Shown here: one piece after another, positions 8,358 to 46,660 of the stretch
How the letters are laid out: each line of letters starts with the position of its first letter
Numbering within the stretch: the first letter of the stretch is position 1
Assembly (NCBI GenBank): GCA_002269645.1
Contig: NIVC01004308.1
Location: forward strand, 1 to 50,999
Reading direction: 5' to 3'
DNA from: Macrostomum lignano
Taxonomy: Eukaryota
Length of the DNA stretch: 50,999 nt
Notes under the pieces: model-generated
Seen by the model: the letters and a program-made list of their open reading frames with translations, nothing else
Told to the model about the DNA's origin: nothing
The model's database searches: none
Translations under genes and position numbers: made by a program

Positions 8358-9830
8358 TTACAATGGTGCGTCCCGAACAATCGTGCCATCAGCTTTAGCA
8401 ATTGACATATATTCCTCTAGAAACAATACGTGGGCGTCAAGTGCCTGATTACCGGTTTTATTAATCTCTAACATATAATTAAGTCCAATATTGGCTACGT
8501 TTTCTTTCTGTGCCGTTAGATCATAAACAACCACTGGATGAATGTTTAGAAACTCTGTGGGTGTGTACTGAGGGACGGCATACGCTTCATTTTTGGCATA
8601 ATCTTGATAATATTTTATAAAATCATTAACATTATTATTTGCAATATTTAGATTAAGAGGATCTTTAACCGGATAATATTGATCATCAACCTGCAGGCGG
8701 ATATTCTGAACATTAAACTCGTTAATTGCAGCAACTGCGTTGTCTGTTGCGGTGGCTGCTTGTTCTGCTATGGCACCGGATTGAAGCCAATATAAATCCC
8801 CATTTGCTCTTTTACTCCTTCTATTTGTTATCTTAAACCAAACAAAAATATATCTCACCCGACGTTTTGATGTCAGTATTTGCCACTGGAATGAATCCTG
8901 ATTGTTATTAATGGTTCGCATAAAGTGTCTACGATTCAAATAAAATATTTCCTGATCATGCGTTAATTGATTATCGATGTGTTTTAAAAGCGGAGCTGTT
9001 ACCTCAATAGTTGGTACGACTAATTGAATTGAATCTATACGAACTGCTATATCGGTTGAAATTGAGGTTCCATAAAGTATCCTAGGCTGATATCCACCAG
9101 ATATTTGCAACTGTATCCCAAATTTTAATCCTTTCCATACCCGATTTGGTGAGAAGAACCCAAATAGCGGGAAGATTGAAAAGTCCTGCTCATATGCTGT
9201 TGCTGTGGTTAAAACCGCGACTGGGAATTTATTCTGACGAGCTATAAAACCTGTATTAATATCTTTTGTATTAGTCATGGTGGTTACAACTGGAACTATG
9301 TTTGTATTAAGGTAAACAATTAGCGCTGCAGTATCTGCACCGGCTGCGTTTTGTACATTAGGTAAAACTACTGCTTGCCCGTTACCTTTATCCGGCATCC
9401 ACCCAACATTATCACCAACTTGTTTTGATAAATAAGTATAATTTAAATGTTTCAAAACTCCATTAATCTCTGCGGGGTTTGATGATGTCTCAACCTCAGC
9501 ACCATTAACAGTTAGTTGAGCTTGGGAAAAACATTTATAAAACCAATCATTTTCAATTATTATTCCGGATCGATCTGCGATATCTCCGCCTGCAAGAGCA
9601 GTTCCATCATTTCTAGTATACAACCATCTAACGCGGAAAAACGCATTTTTCATATCCAATATAGTGTTGGTTGCGCCGATGTCAAAAGTTACCGTTCCAG
9701 TAGTAAAGTTATTTGAATTATCACTTGTTGGTAGGGTATAATTTAAATCGTTTGCTCTGACCTCATTAATATACTGTCGGTGCTTTTTGAAATGAAATTT
9801 ATCACTCCACATAGTTTTTGTTTCAGCCAT
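8358..9830 (-). CDS. Major capsid protein (double jelly-roll)
   Basis: 490 aa, adjacent to ATPase; AQLTVNGAEVE, RLQVDDQYYP, HPVVVYDLT motifs typical of Polinton MCP. Confidence 0.85.
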   Translation of the reverse strand: MAETKTMWSDKFHFKKHRQYINEVRANDLNYTLPTSDNSNNFTTGTVTFDIGATNTILDMKNAFFRVRWLYTRNDGTALAGGDIADRSGIIIENDWFYKCFSQAQLTVNGAEVETSSNPAEINGVLKHLNYTYLSKQVGDNVGWMPDKGNGQAVVLPNVQNAAGADTAALIVYLNTNIVPVVTTMTNTKDINTGFIARQNKFPVAVLTTATAYEQDFSIFPLFGFFSPNRVWKGLKFGIQLQISGGYQPRILYGTSISTDIAVRIDSIQLVVPTIEVTAPLLKHIDNQLTHDQEIFYLNRRHFMRTINNNQDSFQWQILTSKRRVRYIFVWFKITNRRSKRANGDLYWLQSGAIAEQAATATDNAVAAINEFNVQNIRLQVDDQYYPVKDPLNLNIANNNVNDFIKYYQDYAKNEAYAVPQYTPTEFLNIHPVVVYDLTAQKENVANIGLNYMLEINKTGNQALDAHVLFLEEYMSIAKADGTIVRDAPL

Positions 9831-9864
9831 TTTTTTAAGTTAAAAAAGTTTTTTATGTTAAAAA

Positions 9865-10535
9865 ATGAGTCAATTTATGGACGTTGATGGAGAGTTAGCG
9901 ATTTATAAAGAGAAGCAAAGATATTCTGATTTTGTTAGAAATTTACAAAAAAGAAAGTTAGGAATACAATTAGCGGGTGAAAGATTTGCTGCTCCTTTTG
10001 TTAATCCTATTACTGGGAAAATTAGTGAACTAGAAAAAACAGATAAAGATCTTCTGGAAAAAATTGCTAAAAATACTGAGCCAAAAGAGGATGAAATTTT
10101 GGATGAGCCGCCTGCTTATGATGTTGATCAAGCTCAATTGAGAGTTGCAGAGATTAGGGCTGCAGAAAGGGGTGGAGTTGATGAATATCCGAGAGCTGCA
10201 CCAACTAGTATTGCTGTGACAGATTTAGGTAATAATAATTATCGAATTGGTGGAGTTGATAAAAATCGAAATGAACTATATAGAGAATTGGGCGGAGCAT
10301 ATAATATTGTTATGAACCCTAGGGTAAAATTTAACCCTGAATTATATACTAGGGATGAATTAGTAAGTGCAAAAATTTTTTATGATGAGTTGGGAGTAAG
10401 AGCTGCTAAAAATACCAGCTTGTATAAAAGATTGTTAATTCTATAAATAACAAACCAGCTGTTGGAGAAGGATTTAAAACTCCTAGAAAACTTGTTTTAG
10501 CTGCCGCGAAAGCTGCTGGACATACTGGTGTTTAA
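9865..10535 (+). CDS. Conserved Polinton protein (putative core/PZ-like); -1 frameshift near 10440
   Basis: Intact 221-aa version in copy 2 (42210..42875); divergent from MCP; GxG-F putative protease site. Confidence 0.6.
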
Positions 10536-10562
10536 TTAATTGTTAAATTTATTTTTTATAAA

Positions 10563-11152
10563 ATGGAAACTAATAAGATTTGTACTAAGTGTAAACAAGA
10601 AAAACCGATGACGAAAGAATTTTATTTTTGGAGAAATGATTCAAAAAAATTTAGAAATGATTGTCGATCTTGTCATAATACCTCATCTGCTATTTGGATA
10701 AAAAACAATAAAGATAAATGGAATGAATATAGAAAAAATAAGTATCACACTGATGATAATTACAAACATATTGTTTTAATTAGAAATAGAATAAATTGGG
10801 CGTTGAAAAATTTTAATGACAAGGACTATATCTCATATCTTGGTTGCACAAAAGAATTCTTTTTTGATTGGTTAAATTTCACAAGAAATTATTATGTATC
10901 AAAAGATTATACTGGAAAGTTAGATATTGATCATTTCATTCCCGCTTCTTCGTTTAGTTACAAAGATGAAGATCAGATGAAAAAGTCTGAACATTGGACA
11001 AATAAAAGATACTTAACTAGCGTAGATAATAACTATAAAAAAGTTAAACAACCAACCATTGAAGAGTTTGCAAAACAATTGGTGCTTTCATGTATTTTTA
11101 AGGCTATTAAAAATGAGCAACCGAACGAAGTTCGCGTTCCTTCGGAACGATC
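10563..11152 (+). CDS. Free-standing HNH (NCLDV-type) endonuclease; ORF runs on to 11303 in this copy because of a 29-nt insert
   Basis: CTKC...CRSC zinc motif, YLGC, LDIDHFIP, HWTN...DNN HNH core. Confidence 0.8.
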
Positions 11153-12752
11153 GGGCGGAGCCGCGTGCCTTAGGCACGATCAAATAGTGTTTGAAGGAGG
11201 ATTGTTAGATGTTCAAAAAGGATTAACAAGCTTACCACCAATCTTTACTACTGGAAGGTATACTGGGGAACTACATTTACCATCAATGAACTTCACAGGT
11301 TAACCCGTGGCCTGAGTGAGGAAGGCAATGTCCTTGCTAGTCACTATTTGTGGCGACATCTCCAAATTGCGTGAAACCCGTCATACTGCTTCAAGTACCA
11401 CTTCAATTGAGAAATCTTTTGAAGGAACAGAGGTAACTCCTCTTCCCAAAGGTAAAAAGCTTGAAGACACGGTGGCAATGCGCAGCCAAGCTCCTAAGTA
11501 TTTTAAATATAAGGAGAAGGTTCAGAGAGCAGACGGAGATGGGCGGTAATTATCGCCGCTTAAGGTGTGCTCCAGCCTCTTTCGAAAGATTGAGGGTAAA
11601 CTACCCGGCACTCGCTTAGATTTGAGATTAAATCCTGATGACACCCCAAAAGCCGATTCAATTCCCATAAATGGAATTGATTGGTTAGCATACTATCATG
11701 ACTTAGCATACAGAGATGCTGATAAGAACACACCCGAGGAAGCATTAAGATTAAAACATGAAGCCGATCAAAAAATGATTCAAGGATTAGATAACTTGCA
11801 GGGATTATCGGTAGGTCAAAAATTAACTAGGTGGATGGTTAAAAAGATTCTACAATCTAAAGTTAAATTTGGTTTGGGAATTAATTATAATCAACATGGA
11901 AATAATTGTGTTGAGTGTTTGTTGTTAAGTGGCGGTGGGTTAAGTTCTGATGAGGCAAAGATTCTTCATAAAGAATATCGAAAACCTAAATTTTATAGAA
12001 AAATCATGAACTTCAAAAAGAACGAAATTTGGTATGCTGATTTAATGTCTATGCCGATCGATAAAGGATATAAATATATTTTAACCATATTAGATGGTTT
12101 TACTCGATACGCGTGGGCTGTTCCTTTGAAATCCAAAAAAGGAGAGGATGTTGCTGCTGCTTTTAGAAGTCTTGGAGAAAAAAGCGAAAGATTGTGTGTT
12201 GACGAAGGAAAAGAATTTTACAATCCTCATATGTATAAATTGTATCATTTTGAAAAAGGAAAAGAAAGGATGAAGGGCGCGAATGGGGAGTATATTAATA
12301 AAATTTATTCTATTTATGGAGAGAGTAAAAACGCATTAATAGAAAGATTTAATCGAACTTTAGGTAAGAAATTGTGGTTTCAGTTTAGTCTTAATGGAAA
12401 CCAAAAATGGGTAAAAATATTACCAGACGTTGTAAAAGATTATAACAATTCATATCATTCGGCCATAAAGATGGCTCCTCAACAAGCTTATAACAAACCT
12501 GAAAATGTTAAGGTTACTTTTGGAAAATTTGAAAAAAATAAAAAGAAATCTTTTAAGGTTGGTGATTCTGTTTATATCTATAAATGGAAAGATAAGTTTG
12601 AAAAAGGAAGAAAAGGATATTGGAAGATAAGTGAGAAATTTACTATCAGTAAAGTTTTAAATACCAATCCTACAACCTATATAATTGCTGATAAGGACGG
12701 TGAAGAAATATTGGGTTCGTTTTATGAGAACCAACTAATATCAGCGAACTAA
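11113..12752 (+). CDS. Phospholipase A2 (parvovirus-type) fused to rve integrase; exon 1 11113..11300 (frameshift at ~11160), exon 2 11604..12752
   Basis: Spliced ELHLPSMNFTG|PGTRL restores the PLA2 Ca-loop; HDLAY and D catalytic residues; integrase W.ADL, D-EGKEF, IERFNRTL (DDE). Confidence 0.9.
11301..11603 (+). ncRNA. Group I self-splicing intron, subgroup IC1-like, 303 nt, no internal homing ORF
   Basis: P1 with U-G at 5' splice site (CAGGT/GCCTG), P2, P2.1, P3 CATCTCC(11357-63)/GGAGATG(11535-41), P/Q elements AATTGCGTGAAA/AATGCGCAGC, P5abc, P6, P7 GAGAGCA(11525-31)/TGCTCC(11568-73), P8, P9 with GAAA loop, P9.0; removal restores reading frame. Confidence 0.93.
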
Positions 12753-12762
12753 GTTCGAACAA

Positions 12763-12987
12763 TTACTTGAGACAACATGGTAGTAAATTTTTTATAACAA
12801 ACAAAAACAATATTATTACAATAATTGTTACTAATATTATTATTGACATTTGTTCAACTGTTATCAAACTTAAATTTTCATTAAGTTCATTAATTGGAAC
12901 ATTTCCGATGTAGGAATAGTTTACCTTCATTTTTTTATATATATTTTTCACAATAAATGTCGTTTCTGTTATAGAATAATAGTTCAT
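12763..12987 (-). CDS. Small single-TM viral protein (74 aa)
   Basis: Hydrophobic C-terminal helix; identical in copy 2 (39788..40012). Confidence 0.6.
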   Translation of the reverse strand: MNYYSITETTFIVKNIYKKMKVNYSYIGNVPINELNENLSLITVEQMSIIILVTIIVIILFLFVIKNLLPCCLK

Positions 12988-13003
12988 TTTTTAAATATTT
13001 TTT

Positions 13004-13318
13004 TCACATAAAAATTTCACTTTCATTCTCTGAATCGCTGGTTTCATATGAACTATTTGTTGATTCGGAATCTGTTGATCTAACCTCCCAATCATCCGAA
13101 TTTAAATAATCTCCAAGTTGAAATATTAACTCACCCTCTTGTTCTAAATCAAACATCTCATCTAGCTCTAATGGATAAAGTTTTAGGTCGTGCTTGTCGT
13201 CATATTTTAAATAAACTTCATCAATTATTCCATTCAAAATATGTTGTTTTATTATCTCTGCATTTTTAGCAACAGTCTCAAAAGTATCACTAACAGAAAA
13301 GGTGTAAACTCGGGTCAT
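13004..13318 (-). CDS. Acidic hypothetical viral protein (104 aa), terminal gene
   Basis: Near-identical in copy 2 (39457..39771); AAAAATG start. Confidence 0.65.
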   Translation of the reverse strand: MTRVYTFSVSDTFETVAKNAEIIKQHILNGIIDEVYLKYDDKHDLKLYPLELDEMFDLEQEGELIFQLGDYLNSDDWEVRSTDSESTNSSYETSDSENESEIFM

Positions 13319-13372
13319 TTTTAGTAACAGAAAAAGACCCTTCGCGCCTGCGGCGCGGGCAAGGGGTTATAG

Positions 13373-13643
13373 AGTAGTAGTATAGAAAAAGACGCTTCTA
13401 GATCAGACCTTATTTTAATGGCCGTTTGTAAGGTCTTAAGAGGGGGGACGCGAGGGGGGTGTTGGGGAGTGTTTGGAAGTGTTTGGAAGTGATTTTTATT
13501 GTTAGGGGTGATTATGGGTGATTAGATGTATTAATGGTGTTTAGATGTGTTTTTTTATTTACCCCCCGTGTCCCCCCTCTAGACCCTTAAAACGGTCATT
13601 AAAAAAGTGCTCTGGGTCTAGAAGCGTCTTTTTATATACTACT
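13373..13643. repeat. Terminal region of copy 1 (TIR-side end) with internal inverted copy of the terminus
   Basis: AGTAGTAGTATAGAAAAAGACGCTTCTAGA at 13373 and TCTAGAAGCGTCTTTTTATATACTACT ending 13643; same segment at 39132..39402. Confidence 0.85.
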
Positions 13644-14000
13644 CAGATTCCCAACAATCTCACCCAGATTCCCAAAAATCTCAGCTAGATTCCGAACAAG
13701 CTCACCCAGATTCCCAACAAGCTCACCCAGATTCCCAAAAATCTCACCCAGATTCTCAACAACCTCACCCAGATTCCCAAAAATCTCACCCAGATTCTCA
13801 ACAACCTCACCCAGATTCCCAAAAATCTCACCCAGATTCCCACAAATCTCACCCAGATTCCCAAAAATCTCACCCAGATTCCCACAAATCTCACCCAGAT
13901 TCTCAACAACCTCACCCAGATTCCCAAAAATCTCACCCAGATTCTCAACAACCTCACCCAGATTCCCAACAATTTCACCCAGATTCCCAACAATCTCACC
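13644..14000. repeat. 21-bp minisatellite (CACCCAGATTCCCAACAATCT), insertion site of copy 1
   Basis: Direct tandem units visible. Confidence 0.9.
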
Positions 14001-14029
14001 AAGAGTATATCAATCTCATCAATCCGCAG

Positions 14030-15154
14030 AACCTCCTTGGCGGCGCGCTGTTCGGCCTTGCGCGCGGTTTTCCTCTGTGCTGCTTGCTGACAGCCTGCGG
14101 CGCCACCGGCTGCTACCTGATGTCGCGCCACTTCGGCAAGCGCCTGGTTGAGCGGGCTTTTCACAGGCGCCTGGAGCCGCTGCGCCGGCGAGTGCAGCAA
14201 AATCGGCGCTCCCTGTTCGCTATGCTGCTGTCCCTGCGCCTGTTCCCCATGTCGCCCAACTGGTTTCTCAACATGGCCTCGCCGCTACTGGGCGTACCGC
14301 TGCTCCACTTCTTCCCCTCCGTGTTTCTCGGTGAGAATTTTATTGCTGCATTCATTGAATGTAATCGAGTCATGCAGTGTCTAGAGCACTCCAGTCATGC
14401 AGTGTCTAGAGCACTCCAGTCATGCAGTGTCTAGAGCACTCCAGTCATGCAGTGTCTAGAGCACTCCAGTCATGCAGTGTCTAGAGCACTCCAGTCATGC
14501 AGTGTCTAGAGCACTCCAGTCATGCAGTGTCTAGAGCACTCCAGTCATGCAGTGTCTAGAGCACTCCAGTCATGCAGTGTCTAGAGCACTCCAGTCCTTC
14601 AGTGTCTAGAGCACTCCAGTCATTCAGTGTCTAGAGCACTCCAGTCATGCAGTGTCTAGAGCACTCCAGTCATGCAGTGTCTAGAGCACTCCAGTCCTTC
14701 AGTGTCTAGAGCACTCCAGTCATTCAGTGTCTAGAGCACTCCAGTCATGCAGTGTCTAGAGCACTCCAGTCATGCAGTGTCTAGAGCACTCCAATATTTA
14801 CAGTAAAATCAGTAAATGGGTCGTGGAAAGATTTCCACTACTGTGGAATGCGCTTATTAAGTCACTTATTAAACATGCATTTCGCAGTATTGATAGCAAT
14901 ATATACGAGTACAAATTACAAATCTCCCTTTGGCAGGCCTAATGCCATACAATTTCATCACGGTCGAAGCCGGCTGCATGCTCAGCAGTTTAACCTCAAT
15001 CAGCGACCTGTTCTCAACGGGCACCATGTTGAAACTCACCGTCTTGTCCGGCCTTGTGGCCGCGTTTGTCTTGCTAAAAAGGCGTTACGCCTCCCCTGAA
15101 ACCTTGAGGCAGTCGGAGTACAGCGACGGCCTCCTAAATGGAAAGGGGCTATGA
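14030..15154 (+). CDS. TMEM41A: TMEM41A-like (VTT/DedA family) gene, last two exons 14030..14330 and 14937..15154
   Basis: NLLGGALFG...GATGCYLMS...LRLFPMSPNWFLNMASPLLGVP...G|LMPYNFI matches TMEM41A; AG/GT sites with matching phase 1. Confidence 0.85.
14368..14792. repeat. 25-bp minisatellite (CCAGTCATGCAGTGTCTAGAGCACT, ~17 copies) in TMEM41A intron
   Basis: Direct tandem units with near-palindromic AGTGTCTAGAGCACT core. Confidence 0.92.
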
Positions 15155-38397: not shown

Positions 38398-39131
38398 GAT
38401 AGATAGACTAGTGTGCGGATAGATAGACTAGTGTGTGAATAGATGGACTAGTGCGTGAATAGATAGACTAGTGTGTGAATAGATGGACTAGTGTTCGTGG
38501 ATAGATAGACTAGTGTGTGAATAGATGGACTAGTGTTCGTGAATAGATGGACTAGTGTGTGAATAGATGGACTAGTGTTCGTGAATAGATGGACTAGTGT
38601 GTGAATAGATGGACTAGTGTTCGTGGATAGATAGACTAGTGTGTGAATAAATGGACTAGTGTGTGAATAGATGGACTAGTGTTCGTGAATAGATAGACTA
38701 GTGCGTGAATAGATGGACTAGTGTTCGTGAATAGATGGACTAGTGTGTGAATAGATGGACTAGTGTGTGAATAGATAGACTAGTGTGTGAATAGATGGAC
38801 TAGTGTGCGTGAATAGATAGACTAGTGTGTGAATAGATAGACTAGTGTGCGTGAATAGATGGACTAGTGTGCGTGAATAGATGGACTAGTGTGTGAATAG
38901 ATGGACTAGTGTACGTGAATAGATGGACTAGTGTGCGTGAATGGATAGACGAGTGTGCAGTGAGCTCTCAAATACCAGTACGTAGATCTTGGATAATAAA
39001 AGAGGTTCTCACCCGGAGAGTGCCGGAAGTAGGTCACGCAGGCCTGGGAGACGCTGTTCCGGCTTAACTCATCCGGGATCTCGCTGAGACGATTGAGCCT
39101 CAGGTTAAAGAAGTCCCGCTTAGTGTGCATG
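38135..39131 (-). CDS. 3' end of an unidentified host gene: exon 39131-39013 (cut by Polinton copy 2) and last exon 38202-38135
   Basis: G|GTGAG donor at 39012 and CAG|GC acceptor at 38203 are phase-matched, giving ...TYFRHSPGAMRAIKECLAELETQDAADED*. Confidence 0.65.
38318..38950. repeat. (CT)n(GT)n microsatellite followed by 20-24-bp minisatellite (GGACTAGTGTGTGAATAGAT) in host intron
   Basis: Direct. Confidence 0.9.
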
Positions 39132-39456
39132 AGTAGTATAGAAAAAGACGCTTCTAGACCCAGAGCACTTTTTTAATGACCGTTTTAAGGGTCTAGAGGG
39201 GGGACACGGGGGGTAAATAAAAAAACACATCTAAACACCCTTAACACATCTAATCACCCATAATCGCCCCTGACAATAAAAATCACTTCCCAACACTTCC
39301 AAACACTCCCCAACACCCCCCTCGCGTCCCCCCTCTTAAGACCTTACAAACGGCCATTAAAATAAGGTCTGATCTAGAAGCGTCTTTTTCTATACTACTA
39401 CTCTATAACCCCTTGCCCGCGCCGCAGGCGCGAAGGGTCTTTTTCTGTTACTAAAA

Positions 39457-40022: not shown

Positions 40023-41633
40023 TTAGTTCGCAGACATTATCTGGTTCTCATAAAAAGAACCCAATATTTCTTCACCGTCCTTATCAGCAATTATATAGGT
40101 TGTAGGATTGGTATTTAAAACTTTACTGATAGTAAATTTCTCACTTATCTTCCAATATCCTTTTCTTCCTTTTTCAAACTTATCTTTCCATTTATAGATA
40201 TAAACAGAATCACCAACCTTAAAAGATTTCTTTTTATTTTTTTCAAATTTTCCAAAAGTAACTTTAACGTTTTCAGGATTGTTATAAGCTTGTTGAGGAG
40301 TCATCTTTATCGCCGAATGATATGAATTGTTATAATCTTTCACTACGTCTGGTAATATTTTTACCCACTTTTGGTTACCATTAAGACTAAACTGAAACCA
40401 TAATTTCTTACCTAAAGTTCTATTAAATCTTTCTATTAATGCGTTTTTACTCTCTCCATAAATAGAATAAATTTTATTAATATACTCCCCATTCGCGTCT
40501 TTTTTCCTTTCTTGTCCTTTTTCAAAATGATATAATTTATACATATGAGGATTGTAAAATTCTTTTCCTTCGTCAACACACAAACGTTCGCTTTTTTCTC
40601 CAAGACTTCTAAAAGCAGCAGCAACATCCTCTCCTTTTTTGGATTTCAAAGGAACAGCCCACGCGTATCGAGTAAAACCATCTAATATGGTTAAGATATA
40701 TTTATATCCTCTTTCGTTCGGCATCGACATTAAATCAGCATACCAAATTTCATTCTTTTTGAAGTTCATGATTTTTCTATAAAATTTCGGTTTTCGATAT
40801 TCTTTATGAAGAATCTTTGCCTCATCAGAACTTAACCCACCACCACTTAACAACAAACACTCAACACAATTATTTCCATGTTGATTATAATTAATTCCCA
40901 AACCAAATTTAACTTTAGACTGCAAGATCTTTTTAACCATCCACCTAGTTAATTTTTGACCTACCGATAATCCCTGCAAGTTATCTAATCCTTGAATCAT
41001 TTTTTGATCGGCTTCATGTTTTAATCTTAATGCTTCCTCGGGCGGGTTCTTGTCAGCATCTCTATATGCTAAGTCGTGATAGTATGCTAACCAATCAATC
41101 CCATTTATTGGAATTGAATCAGATTTTGGAGTATTGTCAGGATTTAATCTCAAATCTAAGCGAGTGCCGGGTAGTTTACCCTCAATCTTTCGAAAGAGGC
41201 TGGAGCACACCTTAAGCGGCGATAATTACCGCCCATCTCCGTCTGCTCTCTGAACCTTCTCCTTATATTTAAAATACTTAGGAGCTTGGCTGCGCATTGC
41301 CACCGTGTCTTCAAGCTTTTTACCTTTGGGAAGAGGAGTTACCTCTGTTCCTTCAAAAGATTTCTCAATTGAAGTGGTACTTGAAGCTGTATGACGGGTT
41401 TCACGCAATTTGGAGATGTCGCCACAAATAGTGACTAGCAAGGACATTGCCTTCCTCACTCAGGCCACGGGTTAACCTGTGAAGTTCATTGATGGTAGGT
41501 GTAGCTCACCCGTATACCTCCCAGTAGTAAATATTGGTGGTAAGCTTGTTAATCCTTTTTGAACATCTAAAAATCCTCCTTCAAATACTAATTGATCGAA
41601 CCTGCGGTTCGCGAACTTCGTTCGGTTGCTCAT
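40023..41633 (-). CDS. PLA2-rve integrase fusion (copy 2); exon 1 41633-41475, exon 2 41171-40023, open after splicing
   Basis: AAAAATG MSNRTKF...NFTG | PGTRL...HDLAY...DDE integrase. Confidence 0.9.
41172..41474 (-). ncRNA. Group I intron (IC1-like), copy 2, 303 nt
   Basis: Reverse complement differs from 11301..11603 at one position (CATACTGC vs CATACAGC) by manual comparison. Confidence 0.93.
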
Positions 41634-42182
41634 TTTTAATAGCCTTAAAAATACATGAAAGCACCAATTGTTTCGCAAATTCTTCAATTGTTGGTTGTTT
41701 AACTTTTTTATAGTTATTATCTACGCTAGTTAAGTATCTTTTATTTCTCCAATTTTCAGACTTTTTAATCTGATCATCGTCTTTGTAACTAAATGAAGAA
41801 GCGGGGATGAAATGATCAATATCTAACTTTCCAGTATAATCTTTTGATACATAATAATTTCTTGTGAAATTTAACCAATCAAAAAAGAATTCTTTTGTGC
41901 AACCAAGATATGAGATATAGTCCTTGTCATTAAAATTTTTCAACGCCCAATTTATTCTATTTCTAATTAAAACAATATGTTTGTAATTATCATCAGTGTG
42001 ATACTTATTTTTTCTATATTCATTCCATTTATCTTTATTGTTTTTATCCAAATAGCAGATGAGGTATTATGACAAGATCGACAATCATTTCTAAATTTTT
42101 TTGAATCATTTCTCCAAAAATAAAATTCTTTCGTCATCGGTTTTTCTTGTTTACACTTAGTACAAATCTTATTAGTTTCCAT
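41581..42182 (-). CDS. HNH endonuclease (copy 2), one frameshift near 42045
   Basis: Split over ORFs 41967..42182 and 41581..42051. Confidence 0.78.
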
Positions 42183-46198: not shown

Positions 46199-46660
46199 AT
46201 GACCATGACGTGGGATGATTTTAAACAAAGATATGGAACGGACACAACAAGCAATATCGAATTAACAAATTGGGCGAGGCAGTTAAAAATAAAACCATTC
46301 AGATGTGTTATGCGAGATGAGATAAAAGACTTACCAAATATGGATGTTTCATTGTTAATATTGAAACAACAAAAGAAAATGGTGTTCATTGGTCAGCAGT
46401 TTATTCAAAACCAAAACTTGTTTATTTTTTTGATTCATACGCGCTTCCTCCGTTACAGGAAATAAAAGATAAATTTAATCATACTAAAAATCGTTTATGT
46501 GGAGATCATCACGAACAATTTCAAACATTTGATAAAAGTTATTGCGGGCAAGCGCGTTGTATTTTTTATATAAAATTAATAACTCGAAGGAAACCCGAAG
46601 ATTTAGTATCATGCAAAGCATGCGTGCCGATGGCACGATTTTAGACTCTATAAAATAGAC
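46199..46660 (+). CDS. Adenain-like protease (copy 2), frameshifted at sites different from copy 1
   Basis: VHWSAV, YFFDSY, YCGQ in shifting frames. Confidence 0.8.

Follow-up and report, generated by a model that had tools for sequence, protein, structure and literature searches.

Organisation of the locus

The window (the whole stretch of 50,999 nucleotides (nt) analysed here, contig NIVC01004308.1 of the Macrostomum lignano assembly GCA_002269645.1) contains two inverted Polinton copies, A and B, which are ~95% identical, face one another across a gap of ~26 kb and flank GC-richer host DNA. We examined a group I intron that interrupts the PLA2-integrase gene of these elements, together with two nuclease genes associated with it: an HNH gene, which occupies a slot directly upstream of PLA2-integrase in the window, and an Eco47II-like (restriction-like) gene, which occupies the same slot in other copies. 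The rve and A32 domains detected in the window place the elements within the Polinton/Adintovirus type, and their PLA2-integrase gene set is one we take to be of the Adintovirus type. PLA2 exon matches in the 764-Mb assembly number at least 150 (150 of 480 candidates were scored). The two copies and the arrangement around the intron in copy A are as follows.

1..13450 (end approximate), no strand assigned: Polinton copy A, starting inside PolB at the contig edge
39300..50999 (start approximate), no strand assigned: Polinton copy B, inverted, ~95% identical to A
9865..10446, + strand: 193-amino acid (aa) gene, function unassigned, left neighbour of the nuclease slot
10563..11120, + strand: HNH nuclease gene with zinc-finger N-terminus and residues D123-H124, N147, N156 and K159; its open reading frame (ORF) continues to 11303
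11113..11187, + strand: frame from the PLA2 gene's own start codon, overlapping the HNH end, with a stop at 11187 in the window copy
11117..11180, + strand: small GC-rich hairpin inserts, missing from many copies (joints 11116-11181)
11181..11300, + strand: PLA2-integrase exon 1, ending in the Gly codon 11298-11300; 11300 is the U of the splice-site U.G pair
11301..11603, + strand: group I intron, 303 nt, no ORF, last base A
11604..12752, + strand: PLA2-integrase exon 2, opening with a Pro codon; remainder of the PLA2-like domain fused to the rve integrase

A group I intron between Gly and Pro codons

The intron matched Rfam RF00028 with 62.1 bits (gathering cut-off 50; E 3.8e-15) in a local scan of positions 10900-11900, as anticipated in a preliminary description of this DNA that had recognised an ORF-less group I intron here; a whole-window Rfam scan at the gathering threshold missed it and returned no matches. 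That description had named the interrupted gene PLA2, which is correct for the domain that is split, the gene as a whole being a PLA2-rve integrase fusion. The intron ends, 11301 and 11603, were set by the intron-less copies L036-L038, in which the exons abut at these positions, and the exons abut precisely in all of L036-L041, L043 and L044. The intron therefore lies between the Gly codon that ends exon 1 and the Pro codon that starts exon 2.

Its core can be folded into P1 (11296-11300/11310-11314), P3 (11357-63/11535-41), P7 (11527-31/11568-72) and P9.0 (11574-75/11601-02). The splice-site U.G pair of P1 was present in 14 of 14 aligned copies, and 97.8% of core cells were paired in these related copies, with seven pairs changed on both sides, although the structure was drawn from the window copy and the rows are related, so that the test leans towards that structure. 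Across 112 introns, the guanosine-binding G11527-C11572 pair in P7 was invariant (112/112), and the 5' strands of P7 and P9.0 were nearly so.

The terminal base of the window intron is A (11603) in place of the expected G. Of 111 typed introns of type 1, the type found in the window, 83 ended in A and 28 in G, whereas G was terminal in 20 of 20 introns from a sister family (family B, below) and in an independent metagenome contig, L189. A terminal A lowers the claim of canonical splicing and leaves group I ancestry intact. The A- and G-ending states of the type-1 intron are scattered over the exon-2 tree described below. The pN/pS ratio (nonsynonymous to synonymous differences; all such figures here are uncorrected pairwise values among recombining haplotypes) of exon 1 was 0.28 in A-ending and 0.32 in G-ending copies, and this purifying selection, together with the conserved core, provides indirect support that both forms may splice. 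An in-frame ATG at 11775, downstream of the intron, could yield an integrase without splicing. Two other boundaries were rejected: a 3' splice site at G11594 keeps the frame but falls within P9 and is at odds with the intron-less alleles, and a spliceosomal GT-AG reading yields a stop codon.

The hexacoral mitochondrial ND5-717 group I intron also lacks a terminal G, as do most type-1 Polinton introns, and its exons are reported to be ligated correctly in vivo at low efficiency (PMC6545197). The present case differs in that alleles with either ending are found side by side in a single nuclear assembly, among more than 100 copies, and in that splicing is predicted. These natural alleles of one intron offer a ready comparison for the terminal-G rule.

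A second intron type was observed in 23 of 138 copies (L031-L035, L097-L103 and others; e.g. L033:1890-2220; RF00028 42.9 bits). It uses the same 5' site and has P2 and the P5 extension in common with type 1, but has a different catalytic core, which we assume to be IE-like. In L105 and L119, other DNA is inserted in the introns (0.8 kb and 6.7 kb).

Two nuclease genes alternate in one slot

We compared the slot upstream of PLA2 across loci L001-L146, taking as family A the 138 with exon 2 at ≥70% identity; of the eight loci left out, six belong to family B and two, L142 and L145, are decayed, each having an HNH gene and an intron. HNH occupied the slot in 100 of the 138 family-A copies (81 with a type-1 intron, 16 with type-2 and 3 intron-less), and the Eco47II-like gene in 37 (30 with type-1, 7 with type-2). 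The slot was empty of both in a single copy and held both together in none (0/138), and the two genes have identical left and right junctions.

The preliminary description had proposed the HNH gene as the partner that mobilises the intron, to be checked by the co-occurrence of the two. The census speaks against that assignment: the intron is present without HNH in 37 of 138 copies, and HNH is present in all three intron-less copies, two of which, L036 and L038, carry it fully intact (189 aa, DH/N/N/K, full frame). Intact HNH genes thus reside with an unsplit target in L036 and L038, for which allele-specific resistance is a possible explanation; the flanks of L038 resemble those of intron-bearing copies. 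The Eco47II-like gene accompanied an unsplit site in none of the 37 slot copies and none of 20 copies encoded within introns (below). Put the other way, intron-less copies carrying it numbered 0 of 3 in family A and 0 of 7 in family B; in these seven family-B loci the PLA2 gene is intron-less and neither nuclease is present.

On a tree of 101 exon-2 haplotypes, read by eye and with rough supports for which bootstrap was not settled, slot tenant, intron type and last intron base are scattered, and the intron-less copies nest among intron-bearing ones. The copies therefore recombine, and the counts above are not independent events. No flanking variant tracked the slot tenant except 11186, at the overlap.

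Three further loci (L147 and L148 (G000:C87) and L169 (G000:C1063)) have an HNH or restriction-like gene after the 193-aa gene with no PLA2 gene behind it, and look like rearranged copies.

An Eco47II-like nuclease beside and inside the intron

The slot gene of the 37 copies encodes 167 aa and, over 150 aa, shares 66% identity with an ORF that lies within the L042 intron. The latter passes the Pfam RE_Eco47II profile (PF09553) at 26.2 bits against a cut-off of 25.9; the slot form scores 20.6 bits, below that cut-off. A genome search with the nuclease gave 103 matches, and 19 of the 20 that were fetched proved to be family-B introns containing the gene. Including L042, the gene lies inside an intron at the identical Gly|Pro codon boundary in 20 family-B loci, all G-ending. 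The earlier statement that the intron encodes no nuclease accordingly holds for family A and fails for its sister family. A metagenome scan returned two loci: L189, whose intron occupies the identical site, ends in G and contains the same nuclease gene, and L190, a weak 35-aa match. Six of nine database homologues of the nuclease end in tails that read through into the intron core.

The best match of the structure model of the nuclease (predicted local distance difference test (pLDDT) 89.6) was EcoO109I, to which it aligned along its full length (166 residues; Z 9.9, against 7.0 for the next match), and AvaII was among the top Foldseek matches. These results assign the protein to the type II endonucleases with a PD-(D/E)XK fold of the Eco47II/EcoO109I type. 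The restriction-like profile had no significant sequence match in the PDB, and scans of viral contigs with the HNH protein, the restriction-like protein, its alignment and exon 2 returned no locus. The restriction-like frame was intact in 25 of 37 copies (broken in 12), and the pN/pS of the slot gene was 0.25. No methyltransferase domain was detected in 39 element ORFs (14 + 25), with a remote methylase possible among the unannotated ones; the 12 C5-methylase matches in the genome were all on other contigs.

Eco47II (PF09553), EcoO109I (PDB 1wtd, 1wte) and AvaII (6s48) share with the Polinton protein the PD-(D/E)XK fold and an E...D...ExK core. Their sites have a GGNCC core (GGWCC for AvaII), as is predicted for the Polinton protein, and strong site avoidance in the carrier genome is a further likeness. 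The cleavage site of EcoO109I is given as RG^GNCCY (PMC3089450), and GGNCC is the site assigned to Eco47II homologues (PMC10305163). Unlike these enzymes, the Polinton protein has only 167 aa, a predicted activity and no cognate methyltransferase found in the element, and it is encoded by a eukaryotic element, within a group I intron or next to one.

In family B, the PLA2-integrase gene is at the element end and there is no nuclease slot. At the family-B locus L043:1400-1570, exon 1 is accompanied by just the beginning of the intron, and another PLA2 gene, this one intron-less, lies downstream.

The elements have lost GGNCC

Adjacent Gly and Pro codons always read GGN CCN, and the intron therefore splits a GGNCC. 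Loss of this word from the elements was predicted before it was counted, with expectations from an order-2 Markov model and element borders set by eye from gene matches and GC. GGNCC was absent from copy A (0 vs 11.1 expected; Poisson p 1.5e-5) and from copy B (0 vs 10.1), and was the most depleted of the 256 xxNxx patterns; all 52 GGNCC sites of the window lie in host DNA (24 kb; 84 expected). It was also absent from two intron-bearing family-B elements (0 vs 16.5 and 0 vs 14.2) and from two partial family-A elements with the restriction-like gene (0 vs 7.3 and 0 vs 7.2). Four intron-less elements had 1, 2, 1 and 2 sites against 10-13 expected, and the insertion site was always among them. 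The elements on C219 and C1101, which are interrupted by foreign DNA, were excluded from these totals. At the protein level, copy A has no Gly-Pro dipeptide in 3943 aa (15 frames) against 6.8 expected, a count that is not independent of the DNA count.

The family-B intron-less alleles read GGCCC at the site, which raised the question of a GGWCC-only (AvaII-like) specificity. GGSCC is, however, also absent from the intron-bearing elements (0 vs 3.3, 5.6 and 4.4), and GGNCC is therefore weakly preferred over GGWCC. CCNGG was partly depleted in family A (5 vs 16.7 and 6 vs 15.5 expected) but not in family B (20 vs 18.4), and CCGTA was absent from copy A (0 vs 10.1), the latter noticed after the fact; either depletion may provide a lead to the target of HNH or of another enzyme.

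The HNH protein

The HNH ORF (10563-11303) encodes a CxxC/CxxC N-terminus followed by a D123-H124...N147...N156-K159 core. All five core residues were invariant or nearly so across 82 aligned relatives, which upholds the earlier description of an intact-looking DH...N...N core. An HMMER library search recovered 3756 relatives at E ≤ 0.001, while a word-seeded homologue search recovered none and the Pfam HNH profile did not match the window protein. The structure model (pLDDT 95.5) matched viral HNH proteins, including mimivirus L246 (E 3e-11) and an intron-encoded endonuclease of Bodo saltans virus (E 4e-9); its PDB matches were HNH domains but weak (E ≥ 0.11). Core and fold together place the protein among the HNH (beta-beta-alpha-metal) nucleases. 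It does not fit the DHHRN family of F-CphI and endonuclease VII (Endo VII; reference residues D40 and H43, with R and N), which needs a second His three residues after the Asp where HNH reads D123-H124-F-I-P. The protein did match a PHROG endonuclease VII entry (E 2e-8), over an aligned span that takes in the zinc finger too. Viral zinc-finger HNH proteins (mimivirus L246, Bodo saltans virus, phage HNHc) resemble it in zinc finger, long helix and DH...N...N core, and no characterised member or target was found among these relatives; unlike them, the window HNH alternates with an unrelated nuclease in one slot.

HNH frames were intact in 69 of 100 copies (broken in 31). The preliminary description had the gene overlapping the start of PLA2 and ending about 150 nt from the insertion site. 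The overlap stands and the distance does not: of 69 intact copies, 58 have their stop 106 nt before the intron site, with the HNH end overlapping the start of PLA2, and four have the ORF fused in frame through exon 1. The window copy is one of these four, because the GC-rich hairpin inserts (~11117-11180) shift the frames, and its ORF stops on the first three intron bases, 11301-11303. The N-terminal half of HNH was the most variable (pN/pS 0.62), compared with 0.29 for the catalytic half. Among L001-L146 there are 41 distinct intact HNH alleles, mosaic and with identity down to 52%, in elements that are otherwise 90-100% alike; this diversity suggests that the DNA specificity of HNH may be changing.

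Putative homing by a predicted GGNCC cutter and alternative explanations

Slot exclusivity, the same nuclease family in and beside the intron, the loss of GGNCC and the position of the intron are direct observations. Taking them together, we think it probable that the intron splits the only GGNCC that intron-bearing Polintons would otherwise keep, that it was spread by the Eco47II-like nuclease, a predicted GGNCC cutter, and that HNH is an alternative tenant of the slot. The proposal of the preliminary description that a nuclease and the intron form a partnership at this site is thus well supported, with the evidence favouring the Eco47II-like nuclease over HNH as the partner.

Judging from its Pfam match, its fold and the site avoidance, the Eco47II-like PD-(D/E)XK protein would cut GGNCC. 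Selection would have removed every other GGNCC from the element, making a 5-bp enzyme a near-unique cutter for which a methylase would not be needed. The conserved Gly-Pro of the PLA2 loop could not be recoded off GGNCC, so that the intron alone would remove the site from DNA and splicing would restore it in RNA. When elements meet in one cell, an intron-less one would be cut once, at the insertion site, and then either lost or repaired from an intron-bearing copy. Homing would proceed in trans in family A, with its free-standing gene, and in cis in family B, with the gene inside the intron. HNH would replace the restriction-like gene by recombination, perhaps through intronless homing of its own, and HNH carriers would keep the intron as an inherited protection. 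HNH is most likely a rival tenant that competes for the slot; it might do so by cutting the restriction-like gene, which would explain slot exclusivity without flank variants.

Several observations weigh against this account. On C1101, the intron-less element that is interrupted by foreign DNA retains three more GGNCC sites, within its capsid gene or close to it. Intron-less elements without a nuclease gene are also nearly GGNCC-free, so that the loss could have another cause. Host DNA, with 52 sites in 24 kb, would be at risk from a 5-bp cutter that has no methylase partner; it might be spared if the enzyme is expressed only in a productive phase, or through chromatin or cytoplasmic replication. 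The association of intron-less copies with slot tenant is not significant (3/100 with HNH vs 0/37 with the Eco47II-like gene, p = 0.56), recombination is heavy and some copies are identical, so that counts are not independent events, and the 20 family-B intron loci owe their detection to the nuclease itself. The nuclease is only 13% identical to EcoO109I, and the fold alone therefore does not fix its site. The A-ending majority of introns may be impaired in splicing, and the exon-exon joint was not seen in four contig-only runs (presumed RNA) covering the region, although such runs cannot show absence.

We consider it unlikely that cleavage of the intron-less PLA2 allele by HNH is what mobilises the intron, whether HNH acts alone or as a second nuclease that converged on the site. 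Such a role would agree with the short distance (106 nt) between its end and the site in most intact copies (58 of 69), its tenancy of the slot of the nuclease that likely targets that site, the introns in 97 of 100 HNH copies, its close structural relationship to the Bodo saltans virus intron-encoded endonuclease and the constraint on its catalytic half (pN/pS 0.29); the lack of flank variants that follow the tenant also suggests that its target is not a polymorphic flank. The three intron-less HNH copies (two intact, with the flanks of L038 like those of intron-bearing copies) and the 37 intron-bearing copies without HNH are difficult to reconcile with it, HNH was found in no intron examined and not in family B, and the DHHRN motif is missing.

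It is decidedly unlikely that the restriction-like gene serves chiefly to attack rival elements, co-infecting viruses or host DNA, and that the intron is a self-immunity patch which recombination and survival, in place of break-repair homing, have spread; the two roles of the gene are nevertheless not exclusive. Genome-wide purging suits a short-site enzyme with many targets, the tenant of the slot, the intron type and the terminal base have a scattered distribution on the exon-2 tree, and restriction-type defence has been suggested in polinton-like viruses (10.64898/2026.10.13.758929). Against this, the gene has moved into the intron precisely where its product is predicted to cut, which is the usual anatomy of a mobile intron, and intron-less elements would be cut once, where repair would copy the intron. 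Highly improbable, finally, is an outside cause of GGNCC avoidance (a helper giant virus, a host enzyme or composition) with both nucleases as passengers and the A-ending introns as decaying relics. The avoidance in intron-less, nuclease-less elements, the broken HNH (31/100) and restriction-like (12/37) genes and the four contig-only runs without a spliced joint, which cannot show absence, fit this explanation. Yet the family of the encoded protein had predicted which word would be depleted, the depletion extends to two divergent families and goes beyond an order-2 Markov expectation, host DNA retains 52 of 84 expected GGNCC, the 5' strands of P7 and P9.0 are nearly invariant in 112 introns, and exon 1 is under purifying selection.

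Relation to known mobile introns

If the Eco47II-like nuclease is the partner, a relative of short-site restriction enzymes appears to do the job of a homing nuclease. It could do so because the carrier genome has purged the site elsewhere and the intron covers the last, protein-constrained copy. The system would link restriction-site avoidance, intron self-immunity and the origin of mobile introns through a named enzyme and a 5-bp target. Known homing enzymes generally use long sites, and I-Ssp6803I is a PD-(D/E)XK homing endonuclease of a mobile group I intron. Introns of this type encode a PD-(D/E)XK ORF that reads into the ribozyme core, as in family B and L189; unlike the long sites of those enzymes, the genome signature here indicates 5 bp. 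PD-(D/E)XK proteins are listed among the homing endonuclease families (PMC6083498).

Collaborative homing has been described for the free-standing F-CphI beside the psbA intron of cyanophage S-PM2 (PMC6083498; Zeng 2009 and Bonocora and Shub 2009 as cited there and in PMC11296320), and two stages, homing in trans and homing in cis, have been proposed for phage introns (PMC11296320, PMC6083498). The preliminary description had drawn the comparison with F-CphI, and it is apt in that a free-standing nuclease gene lies beside a gene whose ORF-less intron splits the likely target; the likeness does not extend to HNH, which is without the DHHRN motif and is present in intron-less copies. The Polinton nuclease has both free-standing and intron-encoded forms, which fits the proposed route to mobile introns. 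Unlike F-CphI, the present system belongs to a eukaryotic Polinton, and its likely partner is a relative of type II restriction enzymes with a predicted 5-bp site that is unique through site loss. Four candidate stages co-occur here, namely intron-less genes, an intron with a free-standing nuclease, a nuclease inside the intron, and a nuclease probably displaced by HNH; the free-standing and intron-encoded stages may have followed one another in either order. We regard as evenly balanced the broader proposal that this is a methylase-free restriction system in which GGNCC is erased genome-wide and the intron hides the last site, that all stages of a mobile intron are present in one genome, and that most of the introns splice with a terminal A, probably in an animal nucleus.

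Group I introns and free-standing HNH genes occur in protist polinton-like viruses, where RF00028 introns of ~300-380 nt are found in integrated elements, as here (PMC12220804). Those introns interrupt a short gene that precedes the capsid gene and has no annotation, unlike the PLA2 location in Macrostomum, and no description of a partner nuclease, target or site avoidance was seen there (PMC12220804). In other contexts, collaborative homing has already been put forward for these viruses (PMC11296320; 10.64898/2026.10.13.758929), and an HNH domain in the PolB of a nematode Polinton was guessed to have an intron origin (PMC10748475). A 2013 account placed nuclear group I introns exclusively in the rRNA genes of microbial eukaryotes (PMC3679873), and the introns of protist polinton-like viruses were reported later; those reported here are in a protein-coding gene of elements present at well over 100 copies in a large eukaryotic nuclear assembly. 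A literature search of incomplete coverage returned no report of a Polinton PLA2-integrase intron, an Eco47II-like partner or GGNCC purging.

Other features of the window and related elements

Besides the partial PolB, copy A carries capsid, penton, A32 ATPase, protease and fibre-like genes. The capsid, penton and protease assignments are presumed from likeness to family-B genes, and the PolB label from its motifs. A jelly-roll domain was detected in family B, in a protein 24% identical to the window capsid. The family-B locus L174:650-3145 has a primase-D5-type gene (PriCT-2, D5_N, Prim-Pol) besides a split PolB with an Endonuclease_7 domain. In copy B, the counterparts of the features around the intron are the following.

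41581..42182, - strand: HNH gene of copy B, with a frameshift ~50 codons in
41172..41474, - strand: group I intron of copy B, the same intron as in copy A, A-ending
40023..41171, - strand: PLA2-integrase exon 2 of copy B

The protease-like gene (6157-6453 and 46199-46644) is in two frames in both copies, and the fibre-like gene of copy B is split. Tandem repeats of 21 nt occur in host DNA beside both element ends (13600-14434 and ~38500-39300), and a host exon with a VTT domain (TMEM41-like) comes after copy A.

The GC-rich hairpin inserts form a family of ~30-nt sequences, often ending in CGAT or CGAC, that is found in the window at 7448-7475, 7900-7930, 11117-11180 and 41590-41615 and is possibly a mobile palindromic element. 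Inserts occur in genes, in intergenic DNA, in intron loops (giving 333-nt intron variants) and at the end of the 193-aa gene, and one in the ATPase of copy A gives ~10 extra codons in frame.

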